Shown here piece after piece: positions 689-64,000 of a stretch of 64,000 bases of DNA. The notes under the pieces were generated by a model that saw only the letters and a program-made list of their open reading frames with translations, ran no database searches and had not been told where the DNA came from. Every line of letters starts with the position of its first letter. Position 1 is the stretch's first letter. A program made the position numbers and the translations under genes. Origin of the DNA: Leucoraja ocellata. Its lineage: Eukaryota. The DNA is taken from the NCBI GenBank assembly GCA_036785375.1, contig JAWMAR010000100.1:248001-312000 (forward strand). Direction: 5' to 3'.

Positions 689-1130
689 TATTGTAGGCTT
701 TTTTTTAACTAGATGGCACACAAACAAAAGCTTTTCACCTTATCCCGGTATACGTGACAATAATATACTAAACTAAAACTAAACTATGTGACAGTAATTG
801 TTTCATGTTTAAAAACATATATTGAACCACAATGCTAAGAAATGGTCAGGATTATGCAAGACCTAGCTCATGCCTCTTGTATGAGCTATTCTCCAATCTT
901 GACAATAGACTTGCTGTCGAACTTAGCCTTTGGGTTCTGTCTGTGTGGAAGATGAAGATGAATATTTCAGAACTGCCATAGAGATCCTAAAGTTGGTTTA
1001 CTTGCCCTTCCGCTAAATTTGACAGAAGTTGCAGAGGCATGGTTGATTGTTTTCTTCCAAATGTCCTGAAATCCCTGCAGATCTTAAGGCCAGCGCAGAT
1101 CATAATAAAACTAGTGTTATATTGAATGAA

Positions 1131-1217
1131 GGTACACAAAAATGCTGGAGAAACTCAGCGGGTGCAGCAGAAGGAAATAGGCGATGTTTCGGGCCGAAAC
1201 CCTTCTTCAGACTGATC
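1131..1217 (-). mobile_element. Penelope-like pLTR mini-element with hammerhead core, 12-bp TSD
   Basis: Reverse complement reads CTGAAGA AGGGTTTCGGCCC GAAACATC; flanked by atattgaatgaa at 1119-1130 and 1218-1229. Confidence 0.85.
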
Positions 1218-1792
1218 ATATTGAATGAAATCAAGATCACATTGAATGGCAAGCTTGAATGGCCTGGTGGCCTACTCTTGCCCCTATTTTTGTCTTTTTT
1301 TTGGTTGTAGGTAGTTATGGTCCAGGAAGCATGTAGGAGGCAGGGGTCATTGCTACCCAGTGGATCATGAGTTTATGACATTCTTCATCTTCAAATGTCA
1401 TTTCACCCCAATATATAAAAGTTGTGCTGGTATATTGTAAGCAGTGGCGAACTTCATAATTGATATCAGTAGTAGTTTTCAATATCTCAAGAGATTTTCA
1501 CCTAATAGTGTACTTTTGCAATTTAGACAGTGGTGTGAGCTAGCAACTGATCTTCAAACAACAATTTTGCTTATCATCTGCGTAAAGGATGTTAACGAGG
1601 TTTCCTAGTTCTTCAAAGTAGCACCAAGTGTTCATTTATATGAGACCTTCATCTAATGCCTCACCCAGAAAACTCAAGACATTCTAATGGATGTAATACA
1701 TTGTCTGAGAATAAAATATACTATTAACTCAGCTAAACACACCTTTCAGATACTATTTTGCAGTGGTAAAATTGAGTCTGTTATATTTTGCA

Positions 1793-2045
1793 TTAGGTGA
1801 GTTACAGATACACTATAGAAAGTACATTCTTGGGTTGCATCACAGCGGGGTTTGCGAACAGCTCTGCCCGAGACCACAAGAAAATGCAGAGTTGTGCAAA
1901 TTGCCCAGTCCATCAACCAGACCAAACTCCCACCACTGATTCCATCCATACCTCATGCTGCCTCAGAAAAGAAACCAAAATAATGAAAGACCTGTCCCAT
2001 TCTAGCCATTCCACTTCTCCTTGCTCCCATTGGGCAGAAGATATG
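1793..2045 (+). mobile_element. Degenerate Rex1/Babar-like LINE RT C-terminal fragment
   Basis: YRYTIESTFLGCITAGFANSSARDHKK resembles YRCTIESILTNCITVWYGN in the intact copies at 14.4 and 61.5 kb. Confidence 0.75.
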
Positions 2046-2149
2046 AAAATACATATTACTTTTACATTCGTACATCCATTCCTTGGTCAATTATTTTCCC
2101 AGATATTGAGTAAAATTCATCACAAAACTCAAACAAAACTCAATTTTTA

Positions 2150-2865
2150 AGATCTGAATGGCTCTTACCAGCTCTGACGTCACAATGCCCACATGCCGAC
2201 CAATCCAAGCCGCTTCTCTCTCTATCTTCATTTGGCAGCCCAGCTCTGCTCCACTCTCCCCCCCCCTCCCCCCCCGGCTCAAAGCCATGCCTCCCGCAGC
2301 TCCCACGCCCGCCCGTCCGCTCAGAGCCTCGCGACCCAATGTGGTCGCTTGAGGCGTACGGCCGCGTGGGGCCGGTCCCAATTCGAACCGCGGAGGCATA
2401 TGGTCCCGCCATCATACTCACCAATCAGCTGGACGGGAGGCGGGCTGACTGAATTTGTAAGTCGCATGGCGTCAGGCGGTGACGTCATCGCGCAACGCCA
2501 CGCACTAGGCATACAATGTCAAGACGCTGCGTACGCCCGTCGAGACGCTGCATACGCCCTCAATGCGCCTGCGGGCCGCCAGGCCGTTGGCGCGAGGGAT
2601 TTTCGGACAGTGCAAGATTTTTGGAGCCCATGTCGGGACCAGCCTCCCTGTTCCCCCTTTTCCTGTCCCCTCCTCCCTGTTACCCCCCCTCTATCTCCCC
2701 CTCCCTCTCACTCTCCCCCCCCCCTCTCCTCTCTGCCCTCACTCTCTATTCCCCCTCCCTCTCTGGACGCGCCTGTCCCCCCCTCCCTCTCTATCCTCCC
2801 TCTCTCCCTCCCTCTCTCCTCCCCCCCCCTCCCTCCCCTCCCCCTCCCCCCTCCCTCCCTCTTCT
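2150..2865. mobile_element. CpG-rich non-autonomous element (probably PIF/Harbinger-related) followed by C-rich low-complexity tract
   Basis: CpG-rich block in AT-rich surroundings; TIR-like ggggccggtccca (about 2368) and cgggaccagcct (about 2634) resemble the TIR of the MITE at 6775; polypyrimidine tract 2645-2865. Confidence 0.45.
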
Positions 2866-5364: not shown

Positions 5365-6210
5365 ATGTGTGGGATGTTGCACTTTGGGAGGTTGTTATAT
5401 AGGGAGAAAGTATACAGTTAAAGGAAAGACTCTTAACAGCATTGATGTACCAAGGAATCTTGGGGTCCAATTCTATAGCTCCCTAAAGGAGATGCTTTAT
5501 AGATGCTCCTGACTTCATTGGTCAGGACACTGCGTATGAGTCGGCACATCATGTTGCAGCTTTTTACAAATTTAGTCAGGCCATATTTGAAGTATTGTGT
5601 GCAGTTCAAGTCTTGATAAAGAAAGAATCTGGAGAAGGTGCAAAAGAGGTTGTCCCTGACTCTCAGTTTGAAGAAGGGTCATGAGCCAAAACTTCACCCA
5701 TTCCTTCTCTCCAGAGATGCTGCTGTCTCACTGATTTACTCCAGCACTTTGTGTCTCTTTACATGGGTGCTGCCTGTATTTCAGCAGATTAGATATGGGG
5801 AGAGGCTGGACAAACTTGGCACATATTTTCTTGAGTCTTACAGATGAGGGGAGACCTTATGAAAATGTATGAAATGATGAAAAGTGTAGATAGGGCAGAT
5901 GGTCAGATTCTTTCTCCCAGGGTGGAAATGTCAAAAACTGGGGAGGTAGCATGGGTCTTAGGTGGGAGAGGGGAAGTTTAAAGATGTGCAGGGCAGGATT
6001 GAGTGATAGATGTGTTGAGAGCACTGCCAGGGGTAATAGTGAAAGTACAATAGTGGCGTTTAAGAAGCTTATAGATAAGCACATGAATATGCAGGGTGCA
6101 GAGGGATGTGAATCATGTGTAGATAGAAGGGATTCGTTTAAGATGTGATCATGTTCAGCACAGACATCATGGGCTGAAGGTTCTGTTCCTGTTCTATATT
6201 CTATGTCATA
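5365..6210 (+). mobile_element. Degenerate CR1-like LINE 3' part with a nested decayed Penelope pLTR (about 5655-5760)
   Basis: Recognisable gaagtattgtgtgcagttc, gaggggagaccttat and 3'UTR; nested tttgaagaagggtc...ccagagatgctgc. Confidence 0.75.
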
Positions 6211-6770: not shown

Positions 6771-6774
6771 CTTA

Positions 6775-8140: not shown

Positions 8141-8279
8141 GATTTGACTGATAGCATAATAAAACAAAGCTTTTTACTGTCTCAATACGTGATAAGAATA
8201 AACCAATACCAGTGCCACTGGGTTCATCATTTAGGCTCATTCCTTGCAGCATGAATGAAGATTTTTTAAACAGACTCTG

Positions 8280-12250: not shown

Positions 12251-12525
12251 TTTGAAGGAAGGAATTGCAGATACTAGTTTAAACCAAAGATAGACACAAA
12301 ATGATGGATTAACTCAGCTGGTCAGGCAGCATCTCTGGAGAAAAGAAATAGGTGATGTTTCGGGTCGAGATCGTTCTTCAGGCTGGGTCTTAGCCTGAAG
12401 AAGGGTCCTATCCCGAAACATCATCTACTTCTTTTCTCAAGAGATGTTGCTTGGCCCGTGGAGTTACTCGAGCATTTTGTGTCTATCTTTGGTTTAAACT
12501 AGCATCTGCAATTCCTTTCTTCAAA
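12251..12525. mobile_element. Head-to-head inverted pair of Penelope-like pLTRs (about 275-bp palindrome) with a hammerhead core on each strand
   Basis: Arms tttgaaggaaggaattgcagat...ttcttcaggct / agcctgaagaa...atctgcaattcctttcttcaaa, centred near 12388. Confidence 0.85.
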
Positions 12526-12658
12526 CTTCCTTCCTTCAAACATCACCGATTCCTTTTATCCAGAAATGTTGCGTGACCCGTTGAGTTAACTCGGCAGCTG
12601 GACAGAGAAGAAAAGGTGAGTAATAAAAGGTGAGTGAATGCATTCCTGGTTGAATAAG

Positions 12659-12835
12659 TGTAGAAAGGAACTGCAGATGGTGGTTTAAACCGAAGACAGG
12701 CACAAAAAGCTGTAGCTCAGCGGGTCATGCAGCATCGCTGAAAAAAAGAGTCTCGACCCGAAGCGTCACCTATTCCTTTTCTCCGGAATTGCCGTCTGAC
12801 CCGCTGAGTTACTCCAGCTTTTTGTGTCCATCTCT
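12659..12835. mobile_element. Second inverted Penelope pLTR pair (partial)
   Basis: ggaactgcagatg...ctcagcgggtca followed by tctcgacccgaagcgtcacc...gacccgctgagttactccagc. Confidence 0.75.
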
Positions 12836-14169
12836 TGTTTGAATAAAATTATTTGAAAATTAATTGATCCACACCCACTCTTAAAAATAAATCGCCTTTA
12901 TGTGAAAAATAAACCAATTGCAAAACTTTGCCAACACGAAGGGATAAAACAGTGCAGGATATGATAACCTGGCCAATGATACAGGTGTGAGGCGAGATTG
13001 CCGAAATACAGTCTGCCGAGCGATGAATAAACAGGGGTGTGAAATGTACTCACCGTCAGCCTATATATTGAATAATCCCAAAACTCGGGTTAAGTGATTT
13101 AAAAAAAATTACATTAGAAAAGAAACCTTTACAAATAGCGAAGCTTCGCGTATGGCAGCGCACACACTTGGTGAAAATGTCCCAATGGGCAGAAACAGGC
13201 CCTTCGGCCCACTGAGCCAGCCGTCAAATACTCATTTACCTCAAACTCATTTCTGCCCGCATTCACACCAATATCCCACCTGAGCCCCACTCGACCACTC
13301 ACCGACACATCGAGGGAAGGTGACAGTCCTTCAAGCGTTTTGCCATTCATTTCTCATCGAGTCATGGGTTCATACAACACAGCAGGTGTTGCGGGGAGCA
13401 TTCATACAACAAAGCAGCGTGCGGGGAGTGAATGGGAGCACTTGGGGGAAACTCCATAAAATAGTAACGGAGGGTAGAATTGAACCCGGGTCCCTGGAGC
13501 AGTGACACACGCTGCTCAAGTGAACGTATAATGAAATGATTGAGGACAGACAATAATCAGATTAATTGAACTCATCAAAGAACGCGAGCAGCAGGCGGAA
13601 TAGAGAGCATCTGATGATTTTTTTCTCAACCCAGTAAGTGCTGTAGTCGTAATCTGAGAACGCGATGGAGGCAGGTTTACAAAGTATATGGGCCAGAACT
13701 CGAATAATGGTCAGGAAGGCTATGGTTGGAATGGACAAGGTGGGCGGAGGAGCCTGTTTCTGTGTTGTATGAACCCATGACTCGATGAGAAATGAGTGGC
13801 AAAAACACCTGGAAGATTGTGAGATAATGATCATGGATGAATTTTAATGGAAAGTCCACACAAACAGATAGACAGCCAAGGAGAACTTAATATCTACAAT
13901 CAGGTGGACTGGCAGATGGAGGAGATAGGAGTTGGGGAAAGAGAGGAAAAGCCCAAGAGAAATACAGGGAAAGGGATATTGGAAAAGACAGATGCTGGAA
14001 TCCTGAAACGCATGTCAAAACATTTAAAATATATAAACACATAGCAAAGAGTTGTAGGAGTACGCCATTCGGACCTTCAAGCCAATATTGCTATTCAATA
14101 TGATCATGGCTGATCATCCAAAATAAGTACCCCATTTCTGCTTTCTCCCCATATCCCTTGATTCCGTAA

Positions 14170-17470: not shown

Positions 17471-17476
17471 TCTTAG

Positions 17477-18410: not shown

Positions 18411-20689
18411 TTATCCCGACTGTATCAGACTAGTGAACGATCCTCTTATAAGCTAGGAGTGCAGTTCCAATCTCCCAACTGGCCACATTGGGGCTCTGGC
18501 ACTTAATTTATCTGCACCTTTTGTTTAACTGTATCACTATAATATGCAACACTTAGTTCTGGTATTTTTCTCTTTGAACTGCCTATTGTACTAATGTAAT
18601 GGGTTGATTATTCTTAAGTATACTATGATTTGACCATATAGCACGCTAACAAAGTATTTCACTGTATCTCGGTACACGTGACAATAATAAACAAATAAAC
18701 CAATACGAAAATATTGCTCAACCCTGGAATTGTCAGCCAGAGATGAGCTCATTCTCATCTGTCAGCCAGAGATCCTCATTCTCTCAGGCCAATGATCATT
18801 CATCAGAACACAGTTGTAATCAAAGGCCATTGTCTGAAATTTTAACATTCTTTCTCCCTCCAAAAAGGCTTACTGTCCTGAGAGCATTTTCCAGCATTTT
18901 CTATTTCAACTTTTTTTCTGTGTGTAGTGGCAGACATTTAAATGATCAAAACCACCCATCCACCTCAGTTGAAAATGTTGTCTTTTGAAGATGCACAGGA
19001 CACCTATGAGGATCTAGAGAAAAGCAGATTAACATTTCACATGGGAAATAACATCACCTTGAAACCTTTTACCTTGTTTCAGCCTCAGTGTCACTGACAG
19101 CTGAAAAGTAATGTGAAAGCTGCTATGTTTGTTCATATCAGTGCTATGCGGTTTCTTGGCTTATAGTTCTGTCTCCGAACTGCTGAAGGTATCTTTCATT
19201 GTTTGTATTTTCTCTTTCATTTTCCATATTTTATAATTTAATTCATATTTTCTTCCGAAGATCAAAACACCTTTTTCTAATCTGTAATACAATCCGACGG
19301 TAAAATAGAAAAATGGCATGTGCTCCTGATTTCAGTTCCAAGAAGTCATCAATGATTAAAGGCAAAATTAAAATGAGTTTGCGTTAGCTCTTATTTCCAA
19401 TTCATGGTCAATTAAACCTTGTTTGCAATCATTGCTCAGTGGTCATTTATGAATATTCATTTAACTGCCTTTAGGATATTTCGTAGAATTAAACACCAGG
19501 TAAAACATGTTTTATCAACAGAAAAGGAAACTTCCCAAAAAAGGATCAAATTTATATTTTATTTATACTGTACAATAATGTATTTTTGAAATGCATATTA
19601 CACCTTTTCTTCATCATTCATGGCTTGTACTATATTTGAATAATTTTTGAGAAGAAAAAATCGAGATGTGTCTTGCCTTTTAATAATTGCTGCATTTTTT
19701 CAACTCCATCTTCTCACTCTTTGGTTAGTGATAACAATTTAGCCTCTGAGTCAGAACATTGATCATGTGTTCTAGCCAGATATTATAGTTTTGCATAAAA
19801 TCTTAAGGTCAGGTGGACATTTTGTACTTAAAATTGATCACAGTTAGTATCCAAGATCTGTCAGTCTCTAGTTTTAAAAGTCTCCAATGTCTAGGCAGCC
19901 ACTGACCTCTGGAATAAAACATCCTACAATTCATGCAGTTGGAGAATACAAATTCAGAATAAAGGAATATATTTTCCAAAATCATATACTGAAACGGTTA
20001 CCTGTAATTTTTGACACAACTGCCAAAAAATAATTCCTCTTGTTCACCAGATCAATCAACATGAGGTTAAATGATTTTTCAGTGAGATATCCTCTCATTC
20101 ATAATAATGTTAAGGAATGGCCTAGTTCATCATTTTTTTACCAGTAGAACAATACTCTCTTGCTATTAATCAGATAGGGGTAAGGAGACCAAAGCTTTAC
20201 AGAGTACCTCAGCTGTGGCCCCTTTAATGTCCTGTATAATTGCAATACGACTTCTAAGTTACCGTATGCCATTTGTGCGAGAAGAACTAAATAGTAAATT
20301 ATTGAAAAAGAGAATGCCTTTTAAGAAAAGAGGAATGGGAAAATACTGGTATTTGAATAACCAAGATGCCTTTGAGTGCATATTCAGGCAGAGCAAGCAA
20401 TTAGCAAGCAAATGGCATTGGTCTCAGACATGGGCTAATAGGTACAGAAGCCTGCAACGGATACAAACATGTTTCATCTGTTTTTATGTTTTTTTCCTGG
20501 TTTGCTCTCATATTTCATTTCCTCACTTTTCATCAATTTATTAGTCGTGCAACACTGAATTCTGGAGTCAAACCAATCCTTAGGCCTGCGACATTTCTTT
20601 GGAACAGTGCCCATTTGAAGGTGCTGATAATAAGTTGAGACATAGTGATATTATAACTTACATAGGAATATACGTATTTGAATATAAGT

Positions 20690-20792
20690 TGTGTAGGAAG
20701 GAACTGCAGATGCTGGTTTAAACCAAAGATAGATACAAAAAGCTGGAGTAACTCAGCGGGACAGGCAGCTGGCATCTCTGGAGAGAAGGAAT
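20690..20792 (-). mobile_element. Penelope pLTR 3' fragment
   Basis: tgtgtaggaaggaactgcagatgctggtttaaacc...ctggagtaactcagcgg. Confidence 0.8.
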
Positions 20793-21674
20793 GTTGCTCT
20801 CTTTGAAACCATCATAGGTCATGATCATTTTTATGGGCTTATATTCTATCACTATTTGAATCTTTGGTAGACATCATGTAGAAATAAAACACATCATTTT
20901 GCTTGACATCATTTTGTTTGATTTCTGGAAGGGCTGTGTTGGCAAACATATATAATTCTCTAGGTAGAAATATGCAGAAGAGTCTTTTATCTACTTGCCT
21001 CGGCTTGTGCCACAGTTATGCTAAAGTTATGATGGTAATGAGATCCTAAGGGCCTTGATAGGTTTGATAAACAGAGGATAAACAGAGGATATTTCCTCAT
21101 GGGAAAATCTACTGTTTAAAAATAATTTAACTGAACAAATTTGGTGTTTTTTATTTGCTCTCATATGATTGTGATTTCTTTTTCGGATTCTTCATGAGAG
21201 GAGAGAGAGAAGTTTTTTGAATATTTTAAAGATAATAGTTGATAGATTCTTGCTAAGCAAAGGGCTGAGTGATGATTATGGTCAGTAGATGATGATGCAG
21301 AGTAGAGGTCACAATCAGATCAGTCTGACCTGTTTAGGTGATGGAACAGACTCAAGAAGCCAAAGGGTACATTTATATTCCAAATGTGATTGTTTATATG
21401 TGGATTAAGCTCAAAAGCCATACCGTGTCCGTATGAAGCATGTGCACAAGATATAAACCAATGTACCATTACATATAATTACATGTAACCAATACTACAC
21501 ACAATACTCCAAATGTGCCCTTTCATAACCAAACTTTCATAAAACTGCGACATGATTTCCTCAATTATACTCAACTGATAAAGGCAAACATACCATCAGC
21601 CTTCTTTACCACTTTATCTCCTGTGTTACCACTTTTCCCCCAAATCCCTGAAGCAAAGTTACATTATTTATGAG

Positions 21675-22032
21675 CAGGAAGGGACTGCAGATGCTGGCTT
21701 ATATTGAAGATAGACACAATATGATGGAGTAACTTAGCGGGTCAGGTAGCATCTCTTGAGCCAAGGAACAGGTGACAGTTCGGGTAGAGAGCCTTCTTGC
21801 GATTGAGAGTCTGGGGAGAGGGAAACTCGAGATATGAAAAAATTTATCAAACCTATCAAGACCACAGTCATCAATGGACCATCGTGGGCTCCATCTTTTC
21901 TGGGTCATTGGTGCCGACTCTGGTTTGTTTTGTACCTTTTCATACTTCTAGTCACCAATAAACGTCACTTGTTCCTTTCCTCCAGAGATGCTGCCTGACC
22001 CGCTGAGTTACTCCAGCATTTTGTGTCTATCT
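21675..22032. mobile_element. Inverted Penelope pLTR arrangement with imperfect TSD
   Basis: Minus pLTR 21675-21830, plus pLTR 21960-22032; flanks tacattattttatga / tacatcatttatga. Confidence 0.7.
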
Positions 22033-22697
22033 ACATCATTTATGATCCTGGCCTTCCTGATCAACAAGGTCTTCCTGATCTTCCTGATCAACTATGATCG
22101 GCATTAGAATCACAAAATGACCCAGAAGAATGAAGCCATTCTTTAAAGTAAGCAAGGTATCTTATACCACAGAGCCCCTGTGACGTAAGTGCAGCAAGCA
22201 TATCTGTGGGTGGTTAATTTCTGGTTTCATTCACAGGTTATTATCCACTCAAGTTTTCTTCCTGTGGTTAATGATATTAGATGAGTCCTTTGATCAAATT
22301 ATTGTATTAAACAACACACATCATTTATATCTGGCTGGCTGCCTGCTATCTCTCTTAATTTATTGGCAGGTTTCTATCTTTAAAGAGCTTTTTATATTAC
22401 TTTGTTTACCACTTCACCATAGCATCCAACAAACTATAACATTTATATGAAAACATAGGAATTTAAAAAAGCCCAAAATCTTTTCATATGGCATCCAAAT
22501 TGCTTTGTTTTAAAGTGAGGGGAGCTATTTTACCATAAACTTTTTGAAAGAAAAGCCGATAAAAAATTGCAAATGTGCCAAATGACTCAGCAGGTTGCAG
22601 CTGCACAGTCGCACAGCAGTAGATTTACTGCCTTATAGCACTTATTGCATCAGAGACCCGGGTTTGATCCCGACTACAGGTGCTGTCTGTACAGAGT

Positions 22698-32344: not shown

Positions 32345-32710
32345 TCGGCCCACCTAGTCCGCACCAAGCAACTATCCCTGCACACTAACATTATCCTACA
32401 ACCAAGGTAGACAAAATGCTGGAGAAATTCAGTGGGTGAGGCAGCATCTATGGAGCGAAGGAAATAGGCAAAGTTTCGGGTCGAAACCCTTCTTCAGACA
32501 TCCTACACACACCAAGGACAATATTTACAATTTTATCACACCAATTAGCCTACAAACCTGTAAGTCTGTGGAGTGTGGGAGGAAACTAGAGCACCCAGAA
32601 AAAACGGGGAGAACATACAAACTCCGTACAGACTGCACCTGTAGTCAGGATCGAACACAGGTCTCTGGCGCTGCATTGCAGCAACTCCACCTCTGCACTA
32701 CCATGCTGTC
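32345..32710 (-). mobile_element. V-SINE with a nested hammerhead-bearing Penelope pLTR (about 32408-32499, minus)
   Basis: SINE reverse complement; insert ends tttcgggtcgaaacccttcttcagac; imperfect TSD atcctaca(cac)accaagg. Confidence 0.8.
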
Positions 32711-33178: not shown

Positions 33179-33735
33179 CCCTCTGCCACTGTTCCTCCTC
33201 TGTGATCCACCTATCCCTCACCAGGCTTTCTCTAGCTCCTCATCTTTTTCAGTTTTCTCCTCCCCCCCCCCCCCCAACTGCTGCACACCATAATCAGTCT
33301 GAAGAACGGTCTCGACCAGAAACATCACCTATCCAAGCTCTCCAGAGATGCAACCTGACCTACTTTGTTACTCCAGCACTTTGTGCTTAATTTTGTCAAC
33401 AGCATCTGCAGTTCCTTATATTTCTTTTTTACTGCAAAATCTCCTGAATAAAAAAATATCCTACTCTCTTCGATGGGAGTTCTGTGAGATCCTCTCTCAC
33501 TGCTGCCCCTCTGTGATCCACATCACTCGCCAGGCTTTGTCCTGCCCCTCCTCTCTTCTAGCTTTCTCCTCTCACCCTCCGTCCACCCAACCACTTCAAT
33601 CATTCTGAAGAAGGGTTCTGACACAAAACATCACCCACCTATGTTCTCTAGAGATGCTGCCTGACCCATTGAGTTATTCCAGCACTTTGTGTCTTTTTTT
33701 TGTAAAGCAGCATTAGCAGTTCCTTGTATCTTCAT
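33179..33735 (+). repeat. Tandem dimer (period about 312 bp) of Penelope pLTR units, each with a hammerhead-like core
   Basis: Both units run cctctgtgatccac...ccaggcttt...ctgaagaa.gg...aaacatcacc...agagatgc...ctgacc...ccagcactttgtg...gcagttcctt. Confidence 0.8.
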
Positions 33736-37525: not shown

Positions 37526-37571
37526 ACCTGTTGGGATCGAATTACTGTGTTTCAGTAATTCATTGTGAGAT

Positions 37572-40421: not shown

Positions 40422-40969
40422 TAACACAGGGAACAGCACCATTGTTTGTGCACATTCATCTCCTTCTGCTACTGGGCACTATTTCACCAAACTCATTTGT
40501 TTTGGATGACAGCAGACCCGGTGGCAACAATGAGATTACACAAGCCCCTATCAAGGGCTAAATTCACATGGTCACCACGTCTGTCCTAGAAAGATGAGAT
40601 CGTGATTCATGTAGGATCTCACAATAAATGCGGCAACTGGTAGAAAGGCTCACTTGGAGATTACGGAGGGCGGCCGGTCTTGATGTTGTTGGAGATTTCA
40701 CAAATGTGAATGGCAGAATGCAGTAATTCAATTCCATTGCATTGAAATACCAGTTGTGAACTCCTGCACATGAGATGCCATGTGTTGATTGTTAAGGTGG
40801 CATAATGGCACAGCTGGTAAGGCTGCTGCCTCACAATGCCAGATACCAGAGTTCAATTCTGACCACGGGTACCATCTCTCTGAAATGTGCACATTCTCCC
40901 TGTGCGATGTGTATGTTTACTCTGGGTGCTCCAGTTTCCACCCACATCCCAACAACAACAGATTTGTAG

Positions 40970-41818
40970 TTTAGACAGTGGGTGAGGCAGCATCTCTGAA
41001 GAGAAGGACATTCATAACAAGGACAGAGTCCCTCTTGTCTACACCTTCCACCCCATCAGCTGTCGCATACAGCCTATAATCCTTCAACATTTTCACCACC
41101 TCCAATGTGATTCCACTACTGGCCACATCTTACCATCTCCACCCCTTTCTGCTTTCCGCAGAGACCGTTCCCTCTGAAACTCCCTGGTCAACTTGTCCCT
41201 TCCCACCCAAACCATCCGCTCCCTGGGTACTTTCCCGTGCAACCACGGGAGTTGCAACACCTGTCCCTTTACCCCCCCCCCCCCCCCGACTCAATCCAAA
41301 TACCCAAACAGTCTTTCCAGGTGAGGCAGAGGTTTACTTGCACCTCCTCCAACCTCATCTACTGTATCCGCTTTTCCAGTTGTCAACTTCTCTACATCGG
41401 CGAAGTTCCGCTGAACACCTCTGCTCAGTCCTACTTAATCCACCTGATCTCCTAGTGGCTCAGCACCAACTCCTCCTCCCATTCCCAATCTGACCTTCTG
41501 TCCTGGGCATCCTCCATTATCAGAGTGAGGCCCAGTGCAAATTGGAGAAACAACACCTCATACATCACTTGGATAATTTACATCCCAGCGGTATGAACGT
41601 TGACTTCTCTAACTGCAGATAGCCCTTGCTTTCTCTCTCCGTCCCCTTCCCTGACTCCGCCTACATTCTATCTTTGTCCCGCCCCCTCCCTTGACATCAG
41701 TCTGAAGAAAGGTCTCGACCCGAAATGTCACTCATCCCTTCTCTCTAGAGAGGCTGCCAGAGTTACTCCAGCATTTTGTGTCTACCGATTTAAACCAGCA
41801 TCTGCATTTCTGTCTTAC
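40970..41818 (+). mobile_element. Penelope-like element 3' portion: GIY-YIG endonuclease remnant plus hammerhead pLTR, inserted in a V-SINE (40795-41980)
   Basis: NKDRVPLVYTFHP; QSFQVRQRFTCTSSNLIYCIRFSSCQLLYIGE (GIY-YIG); short inverted pLTR piece at the 5' end; TSD acagatttgtag at 40958-40969 / 41819-41830. Confidence 0.9.
41697..41735 (+). ncRNA. Minimal type-I hammerhead ribozyme-like motif of the Penelope pLTR
   Basis: cagt CTGAAGA aaggtctcgaccc GAAA t GTC act: core boxes, stem II, GUC triplet and short stem I (agt/act). Confidence 0.6.
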
Positions 41819-42699
41819 ACAGATTTGTAGGTTAATTGTCCTGTGTAAATTGGCCCTAGTGTGAAGGGAATGGATGCTAAAGTGAAATAACTTTAATCAA
41901 ATGTGAACGGGTGATCAATATCATTGGGCAGCATGGACAGTGTGCCGAAGCTGTTTCCATGCTGGGTCTTTCTATCAATCAAAACATTGTTCAGCATCAT
42001 CTCTGAATGAGCTGCTCATAGACACTGAAGGTGTAACAAGTGCTTTCAAAAGCTGGGGTACCAGGCTTACACAGCTCCCCGCATCCCTCCAATATCCCTT
42101 CATCTGGTGAAAAGGATGTGATACTTTCAGTGCATAGCAGGTGCAGCTTCCTTACTCCCTACCTTTGCAAACATAGAAAAGTGAGTGAGTAAATTAAAAT
42201 GCTCAAGGGGATTCACAAAGATGTTGTGAGGTCCGTCAGTGTGAGGTCCATTTCAGGCTGTAGCATAAATGATGCATGCACGGCATCTGTGGTTAGGCAC
42301 ACAACAAACAAAATGCACTGTCCACCTTTTTTGAAATCTTCCCATTTTTAAAGCATTTGATCCAGTATCTAAGTGAGTAATCAATTTGAGGAGGCTACAG
42401 TGAAAAACAAGTAAATATTGCAGATTGGAACAAATGCTGAGAAAATCAGGTTGTTTATCATCTATTAGTATTTCAATGGTAATATTGTGGTTGACCTTTG
42501 CACAGGTATCCAAATGTACAAGCTATTGATTTGGAGATTTGAGAATGAATCCCACCATGGCAGCTGGGGAATTTAAATTATAGATTGGGAATCAGGGTTA
42601 AAAAGTTAATATTGGTAATACTGATCATGCAACTTCTTTATGGTCGAATAACCTTATCCACGAATATCATTCCAGGAAGGAAGTCTGACATTTTCACAA

Positions 42700-42788
42700 A
42701 GATAGACACAAAGTGCTGAAGTTACTCAGGCAGCATCTCTGGAGAAAAGAGATGGGTGGCATTTCAGGTCAGGACCCTTCTTCAGACT
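42700..42788 (-). mobile_element. Penelope pLTR fragment
   Basis: gatagacacaaagtgctg...tttcaggtcaggacccttcttcagact. Confidence 0.75.
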
Positions 42789-42867
42789 ACCTTTCTCTGA
42801 AAACTGGTGCACTGCTTTTGAAACGACTTTATCAGACTCTGGTATTTTTATATTTTCATCTCATCCT

Positions 42868-48734: not shown

Positions 48735-49590
48735 AAAGTGCTGGAGTAACTCACCAGCTCAAACAGCATCAGTGGAGGTGATGTTTTGTGTCATAAGTTC
48801 ATGTTTATAAGTTCATATGTGATATGAGCAGAATTAGGCCATTCTGCCATCATGTCTATTCTGCCATTCAATCATGGCAGATCTATCTCTCCCTCCTAAC
48901 CCCATACTCCTGCCTTCTCCTCATAACCCCTGACACCCATACTAATCAATAATCTATATTTGTCTGCCTTAAAAATATCAATTGACGGCCTCCACAGCCT
49001 TCCCTGGCAATTAATTCCACAGGAAGTGTTGGGAACCTTCTTCAGACTGATTGTGGAGGGGGTGGGGCATTGAGGTAGTAGAGGGGAGCAAGCTGAAAAC
49101 GAGATGTGGGAGTAGGACGTGTTCTGGAAACTGATAGATGGATACTGGTGAGGATAGTTTGATTCGCAGATGGGTAGAGTAAGTCTAGAGATAAAATGGA
49201 GGCAAAAGAGTGTCAAATAAGGAGAGAAGAAGAGTGAAATACAATGCCAGTGGGAAGGATATAGGTCAAAGGGGACGGGAGGGATGGTAGGGGAGAGGAG
49301 GGACAGGATAGTGGGAGTGCACTGGGATGGAGGAGGCACAGAAAAAAGAGAGGGGGTAAGAAGTATTACTTAGAATTGGAGAATTCAATGTTTAAACTGT
49401 TAGGATGTAAGCTACTGAAGAAAAATATGAAATGCTACTTCTCCAATTTGTATGTGGCTTCACTCTCCATAATGGAGGAGGTCCAGGACAGAAAGGTCAG
49501 TATGAAATAGGAAGGGGAGTTAAAATGGTTTGCAAACAACAGGTCTAGCATGCCTGAGTGGAACGAGCGCCTGGTCTACCCTTAGTTTCT
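48735..49590 (-). mobile_element. Degenerate Penelope 3' end and pLTR, split by a CR1 tail (about 48795-49020)
   Basis: Reverse complement of caaattggagaagtagcatttcata...ttgaattctccaattc matches 41538-41610; ccttcttcagactga at about 49037. Confidence 0.75.
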
Positions 49591-52568: not shown

Positions 52569-53416
52569 TCCTTGGATTTTATTCTTGGAACAGCCTCTCT
52601 GGCTCTGTGTTCCTACTCCTAAAAAGTTATGACAACTTATTCAATCTGTAAGGACCATTCCTTCAGCCAAGGTAGTAATTTCCATGGGGGGAGGGAGGGG
52701 CACGACAGTCTGAACAAGAAGTAGTCACGTCCTTGACAAAACACTGCTTTACTTTTCTTGACTGTTCTTTACCAAGGACGCAAACAAGGCTAGTTCTGCA
52801 AATTGAAGAACAAGAGGAATAGTTGAAACATGTCAAGATAGATTGTTTCCAAATGCCACCGTAATTTGTTGTTTTGAGCTTGGAGGGATAAGATGAAAAT
52901 AAAATGCAACAGAGGTAAGGCTCCACTCAAAGCAGCCATAATTAACTGTCTTCATGACATTGCCTACATCATAGAACTATAGTCATGGTCATAGTCATAC
53001 CGCTTAGAAGCAGGTCCTTTGGCCCAACTTGCACATGCCAACCAAGACGCCCCATCTATATTATTCCCACCTACCCATATTTGACCCAAATCCCTGTACA
53101 ACTTATCTATCTGTATTCCTGTCAAAATGTCTTTGAAATATTGTTGTTATACCTATCTCACTACCTCCTCTGGCAGGTTGTGGCATATACCCAACACTCT
53201 CTGTGTGAAAAAGTTGCTCTTCAGGTTCCTGTAAAATCAATCCCCTTTAAACCTATGAGTCTAGGTAAAAGACTGTGCATTCAGCCTATATACACCTCTA
53301 TAAGATCACTGCTCATCACTCTGCACTCCAATTAATAAAAACCTAGCATGCTCAACATCTCCTTATAGCTCAGGCCCTCAAGACCTGGCAACATTCTTGT
53401 AAATCTTCTCTGCACT

Positions 53417-53500
53417 GAGATGCTGTCTGTCCTACTGTATTACTCCAGCATTTTGTGCTTATCTTCTGTGTAAACCAGCATCTGCAGTTCTTCCTACACA
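53417..53500 (+). mobile_element. 84-bp Penelope pLTR fragment with 11-bp TSD, inside an old CR1-like LINE (about 52970-53600, minus)
   Basis: ttctctgcact at 53406-53416 and 53501-53511. Confidence 0.8.
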
Positions 53501-54739
53501 TTCTCTGCACTCTTTCCAGCTGAACAGCATTCTATAACAGGGTAACCAAAGCTGAACACAATACTCCAAATGCAGCCTCACCAGGGTCTTGTACAACTGT
53601 AATTATATTGAATGGTGGTGCTGGCTCGAAGGGCCGAATGGCCTACTGCTGCACGTATTGTCTATCTTCTATTGACCGTAATATGGACTGTCCTCGACAT
53701 CTCCATTAACTGTCCCAAAATCCCCAATCTTCACGACTTTCTCCATGGGAAAAACAGAGGAGAAATATTAATTGAGGACTTTGCCCATCTCCTGCGGCTC
53801 CACACAGATAGCCACTTTGTTTTCTGAGGAGCCCTATTCTCTCTCTAGTTACCCTCTTTCATTTAATGTACTTAATGTGCTTCTTCCTTACATGGAGGAA
53901 AAGTCAACATGGAAAGTACCAATCAGTACATTATCCTTAAACTACGTGAAGGAGTCTTGCAGCAAAATTAGCCTGCTGCGTACATCCATGGCATATATCT
54001 CTGTCAGGAAACAATTCTTTTAGCAGAATAAGTAAACATTTGGACTGCTTTCTTCTTTTGGTTTTCTGATTCCATTGATCAAAATATAGATTTTTCAGTC
54101 CTTACCAATAAAGCATGAGCTTACTGCTACCTAGTGGGCTATGGGCACAAAGGAATTTGAGCTTGTGGTGAACTTAGTTGGTTTAGACATAAGAGGGGTG
54201 CCAATGCTCAATCAGCAGTTGTCAACTCTCCTCAGAAACCTGCAAAGGAAGTGAGTCCTGAGGCACTTATGATCAAAATGTCTCAGTAAGAGATACCTGT
54301 TCTACAAACCCTGGTGTGTGTATGGAGAACACACATCTTCTGTTATGCCTTACACTGACATGTGCTATTTCAGCCTTAGACATGTCTTTATCCTCTTTGT
54401 TATCACTGTAAATAAATTGTAGATTGCTGATACAAATTCCCTATGCGTTGCCATATTTTGAGTAGAACAGAACAAAAATAGAATCAAAAGACCTTATGAA
54501 ATCTTCAAGGCGCCAAAGAGATTGATATACAGGACACCCAACATCAGTCTTCAGCCAAAATCATTTTCAAGCAATATCCACGTCAGATATATTTTCCTGG
54601 GCTTGCCACTACCCACACGATAATGACAAAACATTGTTAAGATTTGGATCGGAAGCGTAGCTCAGCCCAATGTTCTCCAGACCAATTTAATCCTAATCAA
54701 AGAGGTTGAACTAAGTTCCTTATAAACTTAGAAAGGGGT

Positions 54740-56400: not shown

Positions 56401-57098
56401 AAGGGCAACGCCAGCGAGAATCAATCACACAACAATGGTTTTGTGGTTAAAATGGCACATTCTTCTGGTTATGTTTGTTCGATCTACAGGTGCAAATGTA
56501 ACTTAGAGTTACTTATTATATAGATTGATTAATTTCACCCCAAACATCATGCTTAAAGAGTTCTGATGGTTTATATTTCCTTCAGTGGAAGCAGTGAGGA
56601 AGCTTTTATGCTTGAACATTTATTTTTGGAGTTTTTCTCTTTAGGTTTTCTATGACATGCTCCCTATGGATCAGAATAAAATGTTTTTTTTTAAACCAAA
56701 TGCTTTTATGACATGCAATCCTCTTAACTGCAGAAAACTACTAATCCACATGCAATGCTAAACCTGATTTTAGTGCGTTAGCGAAAGAGTTAAAAAAACA
56801 TCGCCCTTGGGATCAGATGTAATTAAAGTGAGCAAGCAGCTGAGTCTGTAATAGTGAACGTGCCAATGTGAGTTTTTTCCTGCTTAGCTGGGATTTGCAG
56901 AGGTTTTTGTTTGAAGTGTGATATGGGGAATGGGACAAGATGTTGTGCAGAATTAAAGCATAGGTTAAAATAAAAATGTATTTATTGGAATGAATTACAA
57001 AACTTTAATTCAGAAACACTGCCGATCCCCCCAGTTGTAGTTACAATGAAAATACTAGTTTAACATTGATGGAAGGATCGTAATGGCTTTTTTTTTTT

Positions 57099-57192
57099 GA
57101 GTTTGAAGAAGGGTTTCGGCCCGAAACGATGCCTATTTCCTTCGCACCATAAATGCTGCCTCACCTGCTGAGTTTCTCCAGCATTTTTGTCA
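57099..57192 (+). mobile_element. Penelope pLTR mini-copy with a mutated hammerhead core
   Basis: ttgaagaagggtttcggcccgaaacgatgcctatttcc. Confidence 0.8.
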
Positions 57193-57844
57193 ATCAACTC
57201 ATGGCTTTGTTGGTTTTTCATCTGTACATTTTTGAACGTATGAACCTCCTTGGTCAAATAAACATGAATTCACAATCGCATCACTACCATGTTGAATCAT
57301 TCGATACCAAACTAATGAACTAGAGATACTTAAAGAATATTTCACTGTCTTTTTTTTCCTTCACTGTTAATCCGCCTGAGCTCAGAGTATTGAACAAAGA
57401 CAAAATACTCCACAGTTCATTACAGTTCAAGCACTGCACTGCCATCAAGGATTCTGGTGCTCTGCAGTGCAGATGTATGTCAAGTGGATGGACCATAAAA
57501 GAGAGTAGCGTTGTCATTATGCAATCAGCCAGAGTCCGCAGAGCATAGACCATTTGTGACATTATTGTCCCAATATTAGCCGCTGTATCTGCCTGATAAG
57601 GCATTATTTCCCACAAATATCTTTTGTCTTAATAGGAATGTTTGATTGTTCAGTTTAGAGCAAAACATTCGATGGGAATGAATGATTAAATACAGTTTAG
57701 CACAAAGTAAAATGTAACTAAGTTGCAAATTAGAGTGCTTCATTTCTCAGCATTTTAATGGAATTTTACAGATTGTTTGAAAATAGATGCCAATTATTTG
57801 TCTTTCCTCCAGTACCTTATCTTAGCCTAAAGGCTATGATATAG

Positions 57845-58060
57845 TGTAGAAGTAAGGAACTGTGGATGCTAGCTTAACAAAGAAAGACATGTTAGAGTAA
57901 CTCGGTGGATTAGGCAGCATCCCTGGAGAAAATTGACAGGGGACATTTCAGGTGGGACTTTGGGTAGGAGTCTGAAGAAGGGTTCCAACTTGAAACATCA
58001 CCGAATCATGTTCTCCAGGGATGCTGCCTGACCTGCTGGGTTCCTCCAGCATTTTGTGCT
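57845..58060. mobile_element. Inverted Penelope pLTR pair
   Basis: Minus arm aggaactgtggatgct...ggcagcatccctggaga; plus arm ctgaagaagggttccaacttgaaacatcacc...tctccagggatgctgcc. Confidence 0.75.
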
Positions 58061-58065
58061 TAGGC

Positions 58066-59257
58066 TTAGAAATACATAGAAACATAGAAAAATAGATGCA
58101 GGAGTAGACACTTCGGCCCTTCGAGCCAGCACCGCTATTCAATATGATCATGGCTGATCATCTAAAATCAGTATCCTGTTCCTGCTTTTTCCGCATATCC
58201 CTTGATTCCTTTAGCTCCAAGAGCTAAATCGAACTCTCTCTTGAAAACATCCAGTGAATTGGCCTTCGCTGCCTTCTGTGGCAGAGAATTCCACAGATTC
58301 ACAACTTTCTGGGTGAAGAAGGTTTCTGTCATCTGTCCTAAATGGCCTACCCCATATTCTTAAATTGTAATTCCTGGTTCTGGACTCCCCCAAAATCAAG
58401 AATATTTTTCCTGCATCTAGCCTGTCCAATTCGTTAAGAATTTTATATGTATTTATAAGATCCCCTCTCTTCCTAAATTCCAGTAAATACAAGCCCAGTC
58501 GACCCATTCTTTCATCATATGTCAGTCTAGCCATCCTGAGAATTAACCTGGTGAACCTTATGCTGCATTCCCTCCATAGCAATGATGTTCTTTCTCAAAT
58601 TAGGAGACCAAAATTACACACAATTCCCCAGGTGCGGTCTCACCAGGGCCCTGCATAACTGCAGTAGGACCTCCTTGCCCCTAAACTGAATTTGTCTCAC
58701 AATGAAGGCCAACATGTCATTAGCTTTCTTCACTGCCTGCTTACTTCCAGTGACTGGTGTACAAGCACACCCAGGTCTCTTTGCACCTCCCCTTTTCCTA
58801 AGATGACACCATTCAGATATTAATCTGTGTTCCTGTTCTTGTCACCAAAGTGGATAACCACACATTTATCCACATTATATTGCATCTGCCATGCATCTGC
58901 CCACTCACCCAACCTGTCCAAGTCACCCTGCAATCTCATAGCATCCTCCTCACAGCTAACACTGCCACCCAGCTTTGTGTCATCCACAAACTTGGAGATG
59001 TAACATTTAATTCCCTCATCTAAATCATTAATATATATTGTAAATAACTGGGGTTCCAGCACCGAGCCTTGCGACACCCCACTGGTCACTGCCTGCCATT
59101 CTGAAAAGGACCAGTTAATTCCTACTCCTTGCTTCCTGTCTGCCAACCAGTTCTCTATCCATGTCAATACCCTACCCCCAATACAATGTGCTCTAATTTT
59201 GCACACTAATCTCTTGTGTGGAGCCTTATCAAAGGCTTTTTGAAAGTCCAGATACAT
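58066..59257 (-). mobile_element. CR1/HER1 LINE RT to 3' end
   Basis: YLDFQKAFDKAPH, SGVSQGSVLEP, KFVDDTKL. Confidence 0.92.
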
Positions 59258-59852
59258 CTTATGTTAGTCACAATCATTTGGAAAATATCTTATCAAACTT
59301 CACACGATTTGCCTCTTAGCACCCACATATGCCCCATGCGTTCACATATATCCAACAGTCAAACATGAAATTCTGGCTCATTTTCTGTTTCCTATTCTTG
59401 AGATACTAAAGTAAATCGTAAAGCAGCACCAATTGTCTCTTTAACTGAGATGGATAATGATTGTGCAGACCAGGTACTACATCTGTTTCAATGACTGTTG
59501 CTCAATCACACGGAGCTTATATAAAATGGATGATTACTTTTCTACATCAACAAATTTTGTGCTGAACCATAAGTAAAATGAAGATGATATTTCTGGCAAG
59601 AAGTTCCTAAAATGGCTTTCATTGAAAGATGAAAGATTTTTTATTTTAGGGTTAACAAAAATATGTCTAGAATTTGCATTGTACCTATCTTGGTGAATGA
59701 AACATGCCATTGCGTATAATATTAGTACCAAATTGATCCTTCCTAAAAGATCAAGAAAATGGTTATCAAGAGAATATAGACATAGAAACACTACTATCAG
59801 AGTTTCTACCTGAATGGATAAGGAGAATTATGAGTCCTGGCAAAAAATAGTA

Positions 59853-61518: not shown

Positions 61519-61559
61519 TATTGTTATAACAGTGACTTTCCTTGCAACAGATAAACAGC

Positions 61560-62497
61560 AGCCCTACGTAGCCAACCACAGTGCGAACTCCATCATCAAG
61601 TTCGCTGACGACACCACTATTGTGGGGTGTATCACTGATGGGGATGAGGCAGAATATAGAAGGGAGATCGAGCAACTGTCCATATGGTGCCAGCGCAATA
61701 ACCTGGCCCTCAACACCAGCAAAACCAAGGAACTGTTTGTGGACTTTGGAAGGAGTAGGAGGGGGACCCACAGCCCCATTTATATCAACGAGTCGATGGT
61801 TGAAAGGGTCAAGAGCATCAAATTCCTGGGCGTGCACATCTCTGAAGATCTTTCCTGGTCCGAGAACACTAAAGCAATTATCAAAAAAGCTCATCAGCGC
61901 CTCTACTTCCTGAGAATGTTACGGAGACTCGGTTTGTCAAGGAAGACTCTCTCTAACTTCTACAGGTGCACAGTAGAGAGCATGCTGACCGGTTGCATCG
62001 TGGCTTGGTTCGGCAATTTGAGCGCCCTGGAGAGGAAAAGACTACAAAAAGTAGTAAACACTGCCCAGTCCATCATCGACTCTGATCTTCCTTCCATCGA
62101 GGGGATTTATCGCAGTCGCTGCCTCAAAAAGGCTGGCAGCATCATCAAAGACCCACACCATCCTGGCCACACACTCATCTCCCTGCTACCTTCAGGTAGA
62201 AGGTACAGGAGCCTGAAGACTGCAACAACCAGGTTCAGGAATAGCTACTTCCCCACAGCCATCAGGCTATTAAACCTGGCTCGGACAAAACTCTGATTAT
62301 TAATAACCACTTTCTGCTATTTGCACTATCAGTTTATTTATTCATGTGTTTATATATTTATATCATGGTATATGGACACATTTATCTGTTTTGTAGTAAA
62401 TGCCTACTATTTTCTGCGTGCTTAAACAAAGCAAGAATTTCATTGTCCTATACAGGGAGACATGACAATAAACTCACTTGAACTTGAACTTGAACTT
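61560..62497 (+). mobile_element. Rex1/Babar-type LINE 3' part (different subfamily), uninterrupted RT ORF 61508..62296, (CTTGAA)n tail
   Basis: IIKFADDTTIVG, WCQRNNLALNTSKTKE, KFLGVHISEDLSW, SGRRYRSL. Confidence 0.92.
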
Positions 62498-62678
62498 AAA
62501 TGCGCTACTCTCATTAAACCAGTTGCTGGAAGCAAACAGACTGTTATGTGTCTGTTACATGTAAAGACCCATTGTCCTGGTGGCGGCACTGGGTCAGTGT
62601 TGCAGGGGTTGGCCTGGCCTGGTGATGCTGTCAGTGTCCTCGCCACTGGTCTACCTCTCCATAATGCTGGAGGCCATG

Positions 62679-62833
62679 GTTACACAGAAAAGCTGGAGAA
62701 ACTCAGCGGGTGCAGCAGCATCTATGGAGCGAAGGAAATAGGCAACGTTTCGGGCCGAAACCCTTCTTCAGACTGATCGGGGGTGGGGGTGGGTGGGGAC
62801 AAGAAAGGGAAAAGGAGGAGTAGCCAGAGGCTA
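62679..62833 (-). mobile_element. Penelope pLTR mini-element with intact hammerhead core, 12-bp TSD
   Basis: Reverse complement gatcagt CTGAAGA AGGGTTTCGGCCC GAAACGTT; ctggaggccatg at 62667-62678 and 62834-62845 (again at 62846-62857). Confidence 0.85.
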
Positions 62834-64000
62834 CTGGAGGCCATGCTGGAGGCCATGTCTGATCCGCTCGCTCGGCCTCAGTGGAGACGCCAGTGATGCC
62901 TGATCCACATGATCTCCTGGATTGCGCAGGGCATCCAGCAGCCCACTTCAACCACACCTCCACCCACGGACACACTGTCCCCTCGCCTCCCACAGCTACC
63001 ACGCAGCCTCCATGCCCCGGGCACCTCACATGGCCAACCATTGAACCCCCAGAGAGCCTCCAAGGGCACTGGAGGTGAGCCCACAGCTCACTCATTTCTG
63101 AAGTCATATGCAATTATAAATGTTACAATTATGTTTCAAATGCAGATTATTACATATAAATCAGATCTCATTTTGCATTAGCACCATGTGATCCAGAATT
63201 GATGCTACGAGGAGTAAATCATGTTAGCAATTATTTCCAGATGAAACTACGGCAGTTGAAAAAAATGGACCAGGTAACACTGATCACAATCCACATCAAT
63301 ATTTGGTTTAGTTTAGTTTAGTGTCACGTGGATTCACTGAACCGTTGTACCTGTCTATAATTGTGCTTATCTATAGTATAATTTTATTGGATCGTATGCC
63401 AAAGAAAGAATTTCACTGTACCTAGGAACGTGACAAAATGCCATTGAATCATTAAATCATTGATTGATCTCAACACCAATGTAGCACAATGTAATAGAAC
63501 AGACATGAGGTTGACAAGGGAATGGTGTAAAAATCACCCAGCTTGTTTGTATCACATGTTGCAGAGGACGCCTGTCTTCCCTAATGATCTCAGGCTGAAA
63601 ACACATTCCAGTGTTTGCTTTGTTGTGGTGGTGATGTTTCAGCACTCATTTGTACAACAGGAGCTTAACTGGCTGTGTGAAGTGTGTGTCTAGGATTGTA
63701 ATATGACTGTACCAGCTGGCCTGGTGACAGAATGATTAGTTGACTATTTAATTGTTGTCAATTACTTTGTTAATTAATTAATTCATTAAAGCTTATTCAT
63801 GGCATTACTTTAGCAATTAGCACCTTTTTCAGGTAGACAAAATGTGGAATGTAAAGTGGCAGAGCCCCTACTGTGCAGCAGATGATAAGGTCAAAAAGTT
63901 CAACATTTTTCCTCATGCACTAATTTTAGAAAACACCAAATCTTGATTTACAAATTCTCATAGGTACCTAGTTTGGCTAAGATCTGCTGTCACATACGAG

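Follow-up and report, generated by a model that had tools for sequence, protein, structure and literature searches.

A 64,000-nt stretch of the genome of the skate Leucoraja ocellata (assembly GCA_036785375.1, contig JAWMAR010000100.1, positions 248,001 to 312,000; the whole stretch is called the window here) is scattered with short, non-coding copies of one repeat, which raises the question of whether such copies propagate on their own or are produced by a larger element. An earlier note on the window recognized the repeat as the pseudo-long terminal repeat (pLTR) of a Penelope-like element (PLE) bearing a hammerhead ribozyme motif, and proposed that the short copies are self-propagating units resembling retrozymes or short interspersed elements (SINEs). 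Our analysis points to another origin, to which we give a probability of roughly 65%: the short copies would be insertions, flanked by target-site duplications (TSDs), of the terminal repeat of an autonomous Neptune-type PLE, made by that element's own reverse transcriptase (RT) and endonuclease (EN), with synthesis starting internally at one of two tail sites and running off at the RNA 5′ end just before the hammerhead core.

Abundance of the pLTR

A profile built from the window gave 27 matches at E ≤ 1, and a refined profile gave 25 pLTR pieces at E ≤ 1e-3. These include 13 of the 14 positions listed in the earlier note; the 14th (49037) belongs to a long copy with an endonuclease fragment, of which it marks the broken 3′ end. 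The window had been thought unusually dense in the repeat, but its 25 pieces in 64 kb (390/Mb) compare with 681 in 1,489,200 bases (457/Mb) of a random sample made up of 149 10-kb segments placed at fixed offsets in contigs longer than 2.7 Mb. Extrapolated to the 3.44-Gb genome, the sample implies about 1.5 million pLTR pieces, or several percent of its 3.4 Gb. Genome-wide numbers of motifs and cores are exact-pattern counts; by this measure there are 96,796 hammerhead motifs with an intact core (28/Mb; 0 in the reversed control), and one 38-nt hammerhead sequence alone occurs 22,899 times. As the intact-core pattern occurs 33 times in the random sample (22/Mb), the sample is not over-rich. 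Many window copies had been described as retaining the core; CUGANGA and GAAA are indeed both present in 9 of the 25, whereas the full CUGANGA-stem II-GAAACGUH arrangement survives in only one (62664-62777).

Ends of the short copies

Positions in the repeat are numbered such that q1 is window position 62790 and q20 (window 62771) is the C of CUGAAGA; the hammerhead is predicted to cut after q47. The 3′ ends are fixed and two-fold, at q110-114 (the short site) or q149-150 (the end of the tail), in short and long copies alike; the 681 matches of the random sample divide into 379 that stop close to the short site, 253 that stop close to the end of the tail, and 49 with other ends, a known signature of two-ended tails.

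The 5′ ends are bimodal, with a sharp peak at q17-20 standing on a continuous truncation series. Among 61 young copies chosen without regard to the upstream letter, and hence unbiased for the 5′ end, 26 end at q17-20, 21 of these at q17-18; 30 of the 61 enter the pyrimidine tract, and the remaining 31 end at q18 (13 copies), q17 (8), q19-20 (5) or q16 (1), except for 4 that reach at least q14. The first 30 consecutive exact-core loci of contig C1 include 11 that end at q17-20, with the ends of the other 19 scattered between q2 and positions beyond q-1460; once a duplicated pair is counted as one, the 10 of 29 unique loci in the peak stand against a background of 0.14% truncation per nucleotide (P = 6e-16). 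Exact q20-39 cores number 45,080 genome-wide, and 25,708 of them still match through q16, a loss of 43% in four bases of which about 6 points are estimated to be mutation. The continuum is evident in 40 loci retrieved with a 115-nt window query (40 of 40 scored places match perfectly, out of 856 candidates in all), where 5′ ends run continuously from q1 to beyond a full unit and 5′ inversions are frequent; this query spans the C-run, so short copies are left out and the set is biased to long ones. The earlier note had held that a continuous truncation distribution would speak against discrete units. The outcome is mixed, since a discrete short size class does exist as a peak, and the continuum exists as well.

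Short copies are individual insertions with TSDs of their own, and the four TSDs named previously are all exact, at 12, 11, 12 (or 15 at 62664/62843) and 12 bp. A length of 11-12 bp is nevertheless not characteristic: among 39 young loci, 27 have TSDs of 10-19 bp (for the most part 13-17), and among 70 short-class loci, 42 have TSDs of 9-20 bp, with a mode of 14. They adjoin the q17-20 ends; a few additional bases duplicating target or element sequence frequently lie at the junction, and microhomologies mostly start at G18. The three short TSD-flanked copies put forward as examples are not alike: that at 1119/1218 begins at the hammerhead, that at 53406/53501 has no hammerhead, and that at 62667/62834 begins about 60 nt further upstream, in the 3′ untranslated region (UTR).

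The bases just before the ends are enriched in G. With q18-39 exact, q17 is G in 3,088 copies and T in 2,457 (the counts cover G and T), and with A17 present q16 is G in 1,555 and A or T in 3,051; the G fractions are 0.557 against 0.435 expected at q17 and 0.338 against 0.278 at q16. After a G at q17, 14 of the 26 unique loci have a second G (P = 3e-4 relative to base composition), compared with 3 of 20 after a T. Peak copies are preceded by G in 10/21 and by GG in 4/21 cases, internal truncations in 5/20 and 0/20. An extra G marks full-length L1 insertions derived from capped RNA, according to the text of PMC11702581, and the extra G's at these junctions weakly suggest a cap. The predicted cut (q47/48) coincides with no peak of 5′ ends, q46-50 holding 8 of 452 starts compared with 8-19 per 5 nt nearby, and no q47-to-q17 junctions were found.

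The autonomous element and its long copies

The intact unit of the element is 3,985 nt long and encodes an RT, a cysteine linker and a GIY-YIG endonuclease. At one locus (L023) an uninterrupted frame of 1,247 codons, with its first methionine at codon 25, lies between an upstream partial copy and the 3′ pLTR; a second locus (L015) has a similar arrangement, although frameshifted. The open reading frame (ORF) of about 1,220 aa has a long proline-rich N-terminal part. Its product matches RVT_1 (E = 1.9e-6) and GIY-YIG (E = 0.011) in Pfam, both below the curated cut-off, and has the motifs YIDD and IYIGET together with a CX3CxxC linker at residue 1114. Homologs with the same domain set number 644, and the best 120 of these 644 are 40-53% identical to it. 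A single ORF with RT and C-terminal GIY-YIG, pLTRs in partial tandem, 5′ inversions and an optional tail of 30-40 nt are all found, as in endonuclease-bearing (EN+) PLEs. A CX2-5CxxC linker between RT and EN is common to Neptune and Nematis in the text of PMC8557442; by its linker sequence the element would belong with one of these, and we call it Neptune-type. In L023 a 37-nt tail connects the upstream pLTR to the ORF and the 3′ pLTR stops at q113, such that the tail occurs only at the internal junction. On the reverse strand of the same locus, a GT-containing donor-like sequence overlaps the ORF stop codon, as it does in several subfamilies, and a CAG-bearing pyrimidine tract extends as far as q18; judged by these motifs, the stretch from the stop codon to q18 could be a retained intron of about 120 nt. 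The GIY-YIG-bearing copy at 40958/41819, formerly regarded as the parent of the short copies, is instead a broken, 5′-truncated fragment with an inverted pLTR piece, showing 50-61% protein and 73% DNA identity to the intact element.

Long copies match q16-19 almost perfectly and cross q17 without a scar in nearly all cases, the exceptions being the upstream copy of L023, which is missing 4 nt at q10-13, and another locus (L191) that is missing a few bases before q18. An insertion on C1 (L291:439-10000 + L292:1-309; G000:C1:~8664440-8674310) contains 2.45 head-to-tail full units within one 14-bp TSD. Its units differ from each other at 1/3,981 sites and from L023 at 81/3,949, and one has an intact frame of 1,246 codons; this indicates that one template was copied repeatedly or that the source was a very young tandem. 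The tandem unit found is thus the full 3,985-nt element and not the short unit. Separately, locus L051 contains a 66-nt head-to-tail tandem repeat that consists of the 3′ half of the pLTR and lacks the hammerhead core.

Short and long copies also share haplotypes. The two commonest occur in both classes, at 16:8 and 5:4, in a set of 70 short and 20 long young copies, and this small sample, limited to the young subfamily, shows no diagnostic separation that would mark a SINE-like lineage of short copies. From about q14 onward the module is common to several subfamilies whose 3′ UTRs are unrelated, so that the 5′-end peak coincides with a conserved boundary of the pLTR. Apart from these, a cluster of five copies in the 1.49-Mb sample (among them L126, L069, L102 and L156) has a degenerate pLTR with shared changes, including loss of core G5, fixed behind the 3′ end of another repeat; it is possibly a separately amplified chimeric repeat.

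The hammerhead motif

As the earlier note held, the repeat is a Penelope pLTR with a minimal type-I hammerhead motif, which has the core CUGANGA/GAAA/UH, stem II, and the palindromic 15.2-16.2 pairs. When copies are clustered by upstream sequence, the majority rows of 7 of the 8 clusters keep CUGAAGA and GAAA intact. Core positions are 93.3% conserved in 220 copies, compared with a mean of 87.5% (median 91.1%) for non-CpG positions q61-100, a small excess that is as expected for neutrally decaying copies. Changes in the stems are one-sided and of wobble type (stem II pair 4: UA 155, UG 58; stem I pair 1: UA 94, UG 42). Stem I is short and weak, as the earlier note had cautioned, with 2 bp, a 2x2 mismatch and 2 bp, and an RNA starting at G18 would keep just two of its base pairs. 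An Rfam scan of the window returned no hammerhead and nothing else relevant, and RNAalifold gave no consensus fold for 50 copies. In the predicted monomer fold the core pairs with the downstream pyrimidine run, leaving stem II a probability of at most 0.01 in a young copy, while the dimer co-fold yields a long duplex around the near-palindrome rather than a hammerhead. A buried core and a weak stem I, as modeled, would fit the weak or protein-assisted cleavage of PLE hammerheads described in the texts of PMC4209133 and PMC11167929. The motif at 41697-41735, previously suggested for a cleavage assay, has a decayed core (GAAAUGUC) and a mismatched first pair of stem II, and judging from these changes would be a poor construct. 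A further observation concerns the same region: tandem duplications of 32-34 nt covering q26-60 recur at three loci (L172, L177, L178) and in the RNA joints at L023:4308-4344, with head-to-head breakpoints at q26-32. Both the duplications and the breakpoints are likely to stem from fold-back, or from the template being switched twice, around stem II, where the sequence is nearly palindromic.

Origin of the short copies

In the scenario that we favor, the element RNA would begin at A17/G18 in the upstream pLTR, within the sequence TCAGT (window 62772-62776), which we take to be initiator-like and which, by its consensus motif, also looks like the pyrimidine tract and CAG of a splice acceptor. 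Reverse transcription would start internally at one of the two tail sites, and the first such site would then lie only about 95 or about 132 nt downstream of the RNA start; with so short a distance to cover, the enzyme would reach the end and insert a product akin to strong-stop complementary DNA (cDNA). In retroviruses, minus-strand strong-stop cDNA arises by priming near the RNA 5′ end and run-off, and its terminal redundancy can guide a jump; by analogy, in the skate nicked target DNA would act as primer, the short product would integrate, and strand transfer would be one of three options for completing a long copy. Long and multi-unit copies would require a template continuous across q17. 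This could be a unit-length circle, cut by the hammerhead and ligated, or a tandem RNA produced by read-through; alternatively, homology could guide a jump to the 3′ pLTR. Earlier work offers precedents: the pLTR of Drosophila virilis has an internal promoter with initiator (Inr) and downstream promoter element (DPE) (PMC2377424), and the anole element initiates in vitro at two tail ends, with the RNA 5′ end setting product length and hammerhead cleavage not needed (PMC11167929). By analogy with the anole element, the short copies are probably dead ends, because the sequence downstream of the RT start, which is required in vitro there, would never be copied.

Several observations weigh against this interpretation. 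The 5′ ends have their mode at G18, where A17 would be canonical, and some of them fall at q14-16 and q19-21. The excess of G is modest (the difference between peak copies and internal truncations is estimated to be non-significant alone), and the G count at q17 is inflated by A-to-G mutation. RNA reads of a related species show no pile-up of read starts or ends at q17-18; in a bulk run of such raw RNA the pLTR is covered on both strands about 1,000 times more deeply than the 5′ half of the ORF, which we read as passive transcription of genomic copies, uninformative on the start site. When solo-like copies of all ages are considered, a TSD is detectable in only 43/330 (null 5/317), and 6 of these 43 come from one tandem repeat. 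Within the set of 70 short and only 20 long copies, the short ones are somewhat closer to one another (0.984) than to the long (0.955). Finally, the peak site has the look of a 3′ splice acceptor, and the text of PMC4209133 describes a D. virilis intron that terminates at the 5′ end of helix I.

The acceptor-like site, the D. virilis intron and the G18 mode would fit an RT that stalled at the onset of the pyrimidine tract and CAG, for instance because a protein occupies a 3′ splice site or because RNA processing sets a boundary there; in the subfamilies examined, the core is directly preceded by a pyrimidine tract that ends in CAG or TAG. The short copies would still be by-products of the autonomous element, and this is the main rival, albeit an unlikely one given that spliced junctions between the ORF end and q19 are absent from the fetched loci (0 matches) and from the RNA joints listed, that part of the C-run is almost never present in short copies, and that the extra G or GG fits run-off better. 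A greater departure is the proposal of the earlier note that the units are transcribed, processed by their hammerheads and mobilized in trans. Discrete sizes, individual TSDs, the very high copy number and the initiator-like site kept within the unit could all be cited for it, as could the proposal that non-LTR retrozymes derive from pLTRs (bioRxiv 10.64898/2026.07.22.740005) and the finding that pLTR sequences were enough for mobilization in trans in a rotifer (PMC3846280). We nevertheless regard it as improbable: the haplotypes are common to long copies, the short class sits on top of the truncation series of the autonomous element, neither 5′ ends nor junctions point to use of the cut, the predicted monomer fold sequesters the core, and the units occur solo or head-to-head and not head-to-tail, with no short-unit tandem arrays seen in the window.

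Two further explanations have little to commend them. Recombination between two pLTRs after insertion, in the manner of solo LTRs, might be entertained since partial tandems have direct repeats of more than 600 nt and since solo pLTRs are ascribed to recombination or deletion in the text of PMC3846280; the 5′ ends of upstream partial copies, however, are long and variable (q-503 in L023, at least q-562 in L015, q-1787 in L291/L292), so that recombination would not yield a fixed G18 end, and full-length parents are far too rare (2/40 even in the long-biased set), which makes this very improbable. We attach slightly less credence still to ordinary random 5′ truncation with a peak produced by misalignment of the variable C-rich region. 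Upstream regions do differ among subfamilies, and when all subfamilies are allowed 135 of 317 non-inverted copies extend upstream (null 97.5th percentile of the extension score, 12), some falsely, as solos inserted in other repeats; yet TSDs of the young subfamily directly adjoin q17-20 and long copies retain q16-19, and the idea is largely refuted by these TSD-anchored ends.

Within the run-off interpretation, we tentatively raise a more specific version in which one element uses two templates. Capped linear RNA would give the run-off inserts of about 95/132 nt, and hammerhead cleavage in both pLTRs followed by ligation would give a 3,985-nt RNA circle, copied seamlessly by the same enzyme into all long, partial-tandem and multi-unit insertions, the 2.45-unit copy on C1 among them. 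This version is less likely than not; if true, the genome would be a record of more than a million such reactions, showing what the Penelope hammerhead is for. How PLEs regenerate their tandem structure and what the hammerhead does are posed as open questions in the text of PMC2377424 and PMC11167929.

Relation to known systems

The element, the ribozyme and the tail are all of known kind, and the addition made here is the dominant, base-precise short class. As in the EN+ PLEs of Neptune and Nematis type treated in the text of PMC8557442, a single ORF joins RT, CX2-5CxxC linker and C-terminal GIY-YIG, and partial-tandem pLTRs, 5′ inversions, an optional 30-40-nt tail and a pLTR hammerhead occur; the skate element differs in its ORF of about 1,220 aa with a proline-rich N-terminus, its roughly one million pLTR pieces, and its dominant discrete short class. 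PAc, a Poseidon element of Anolis (PMC11167929), likewise has two AC-rich 3′ ends about 37 nt apart that match two internal RT starts, a hammerhead upstream of them, and no sign of cleaved RNA as template. It belongs to another clade, its hammerhead and tail lie inside the ORF rather than upstream of the ATG as in the skate, and its text does not describe an in vivo 5′-end peak. We found no description of such a peak in open-access literature text; a 5′ edge of this sort may already be visible in Fig. S2 of PMC11167929, where genomic copies are plotted against the template, and Repbase or Dfam may list the short unit under another name.

The motif itself shares with the minimal type-I hammerheads of metazoan PLEs, as presented in the text of PMC4209133, the CUGANGA core, the extra base before stem II, G10.1-C11.1 and the palindromic 15.2-16.2 pairs, as well as a 2-bp helix I as in D. 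virilis and an occurrence mostly as single dispersed motifs, ascribed there to truncated PLEs. The 96,796 intact-core motifs compare with about 4,000 in coelacanth and about 9,000 in Xenopus (PMC4209133, using a different descriptor), but as up to 120,000 retrozyme copies are given for axolotl in the text of PMC7229834, they are not a record for hammerheads in general. Non-LTR retrozymes are similarly short, non-coding, pLTR-related and equipped with a type-I hammerhead, as far as the texts of PMC7229834 and bioRxiv 10.64898/2026.07.22.740005 describe them. They form head-to-tail repeats of about 170-400 nt that are processed to circles, whereas the copies in the window lie singly or head-to-head (tandems were not searched for genome-wide), and skate units end 5′ of the core, with no peak at q46-50, and show no separate lineage. 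Dead by-products may therefore be included where "monomeric retrozymes" or pLTR-derived SINEs are counted. The family is young, with intact ORFs and tens of thousands of near-identical products, and thereby provides in vivo ends at base resolution that match in vitro internal initiation and add a sharp 5′ stop; models based on a start site, a stall, a circle or strand transfer are therefore directly testable in it.

Features of the window

Several of the copies in the window are halves of head-to-head pairs or extend upstream into the 3′ UTR; their coordinates are collected in Table 1.

Table 1 PLE-derived features of the 64,000-nt window.
Feature	Position	Strand	Details
Short-class insert, 87 bp	1119..1229	-	Begins at hammerhead 5′ flank; short 3′ end; small internal deletion; CpG-decayed stem III; 12-bp TSD 1119/1218
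Older pLTR piece	5663..5760	+	Mutated core; short 3′ end
Head-to-head inverted pLTR+tail pair	12253..12523	12253-12385 -, 12391-12523 +	Both begin at hammerhead 5′ flank
Second head-to-head pair	12658..12840		Breakpoints within pLTR; additional fragment at 12538-12589
pLTR+tail piece without hammerhead	20675..20861	-	Possible 9-bp TSD 20675/20853 (weak)
Inverted-structure insertion	21660..22045	21672-21804 -, 21960-22033 +	Minus-strand part runs into 3′ UTR of an older subfamily; 14-bp TSD with 1 mismatch
Short-class copy	32402..32500	-	Modal 5′ end; short 3′ end
Two older pLTR+tail copies	33293..33727	+	33293-33419 and 33600-33727; second runs upstream into 3′ UTR (upstream scores 15 and 31)
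Dead 849-bp 5′-truncated insertion	40958..41830	+	Inverted pLTR piece 40976-41018; broken Cys-linker/GIY-YIG 40989-41610; 3′ UTR; pLTR+tail; 12-bp TSD
Older short-class copy	42693..42789	-	
Long copy	49028..49569	-	Endonuclease C-terminus and long 3′ UTR; broken within hammerhead
84-bp insert	53406..53511	+	pLTR 3′ half and tail, without hammerhead; 11-bp TSD
Short-class copy, younger type	57098..57196	+	Core C3 mutated
Head-to-head pair	57851..58072	57851-57954 -, 57968-58072 +	
Young insert, 155-164 bp	62664..62857	-	Begins in 3′ UTR; tiny inverted piece; 12- or 15-bp TSD; 98.7% identity to intact element
Sole intact minimal hammerhead core of the window	62744..62771	-	CUGAAGA-A-stem II-GAAA-CG-UU; predicted cut after 62744
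TCAGT directly 5′ of the core	62772..62776	-	Site of genome-wide 5′-end peak (62773-62774)

The window also holds repeats of other kinds. Many fragments of a long interspersed element (LINE), which we presume to be CR1-like, are 60-95% alike and carry RT-end motifs (137-690, 7735-8280, 22699-23450, 24276-25900, 38499-39700, 50400-51950 and 58079-59260). RT-end fragments of a second LINE family, presumably Rex1/Babar-like, lie at 14382-15155, 17655-18131 and 61457-62296, with 14610-14909 and 17688-17987 being 99% identical. A GC-rich repeat at 37123-38013, adjoining an N stretch, has inverted arms of 305 nt that are 84% complementary and 281 nt apart, and a long CT-rich low-complexity array at 46061-47740 contains an internal near-exact duplication of 296 nt.

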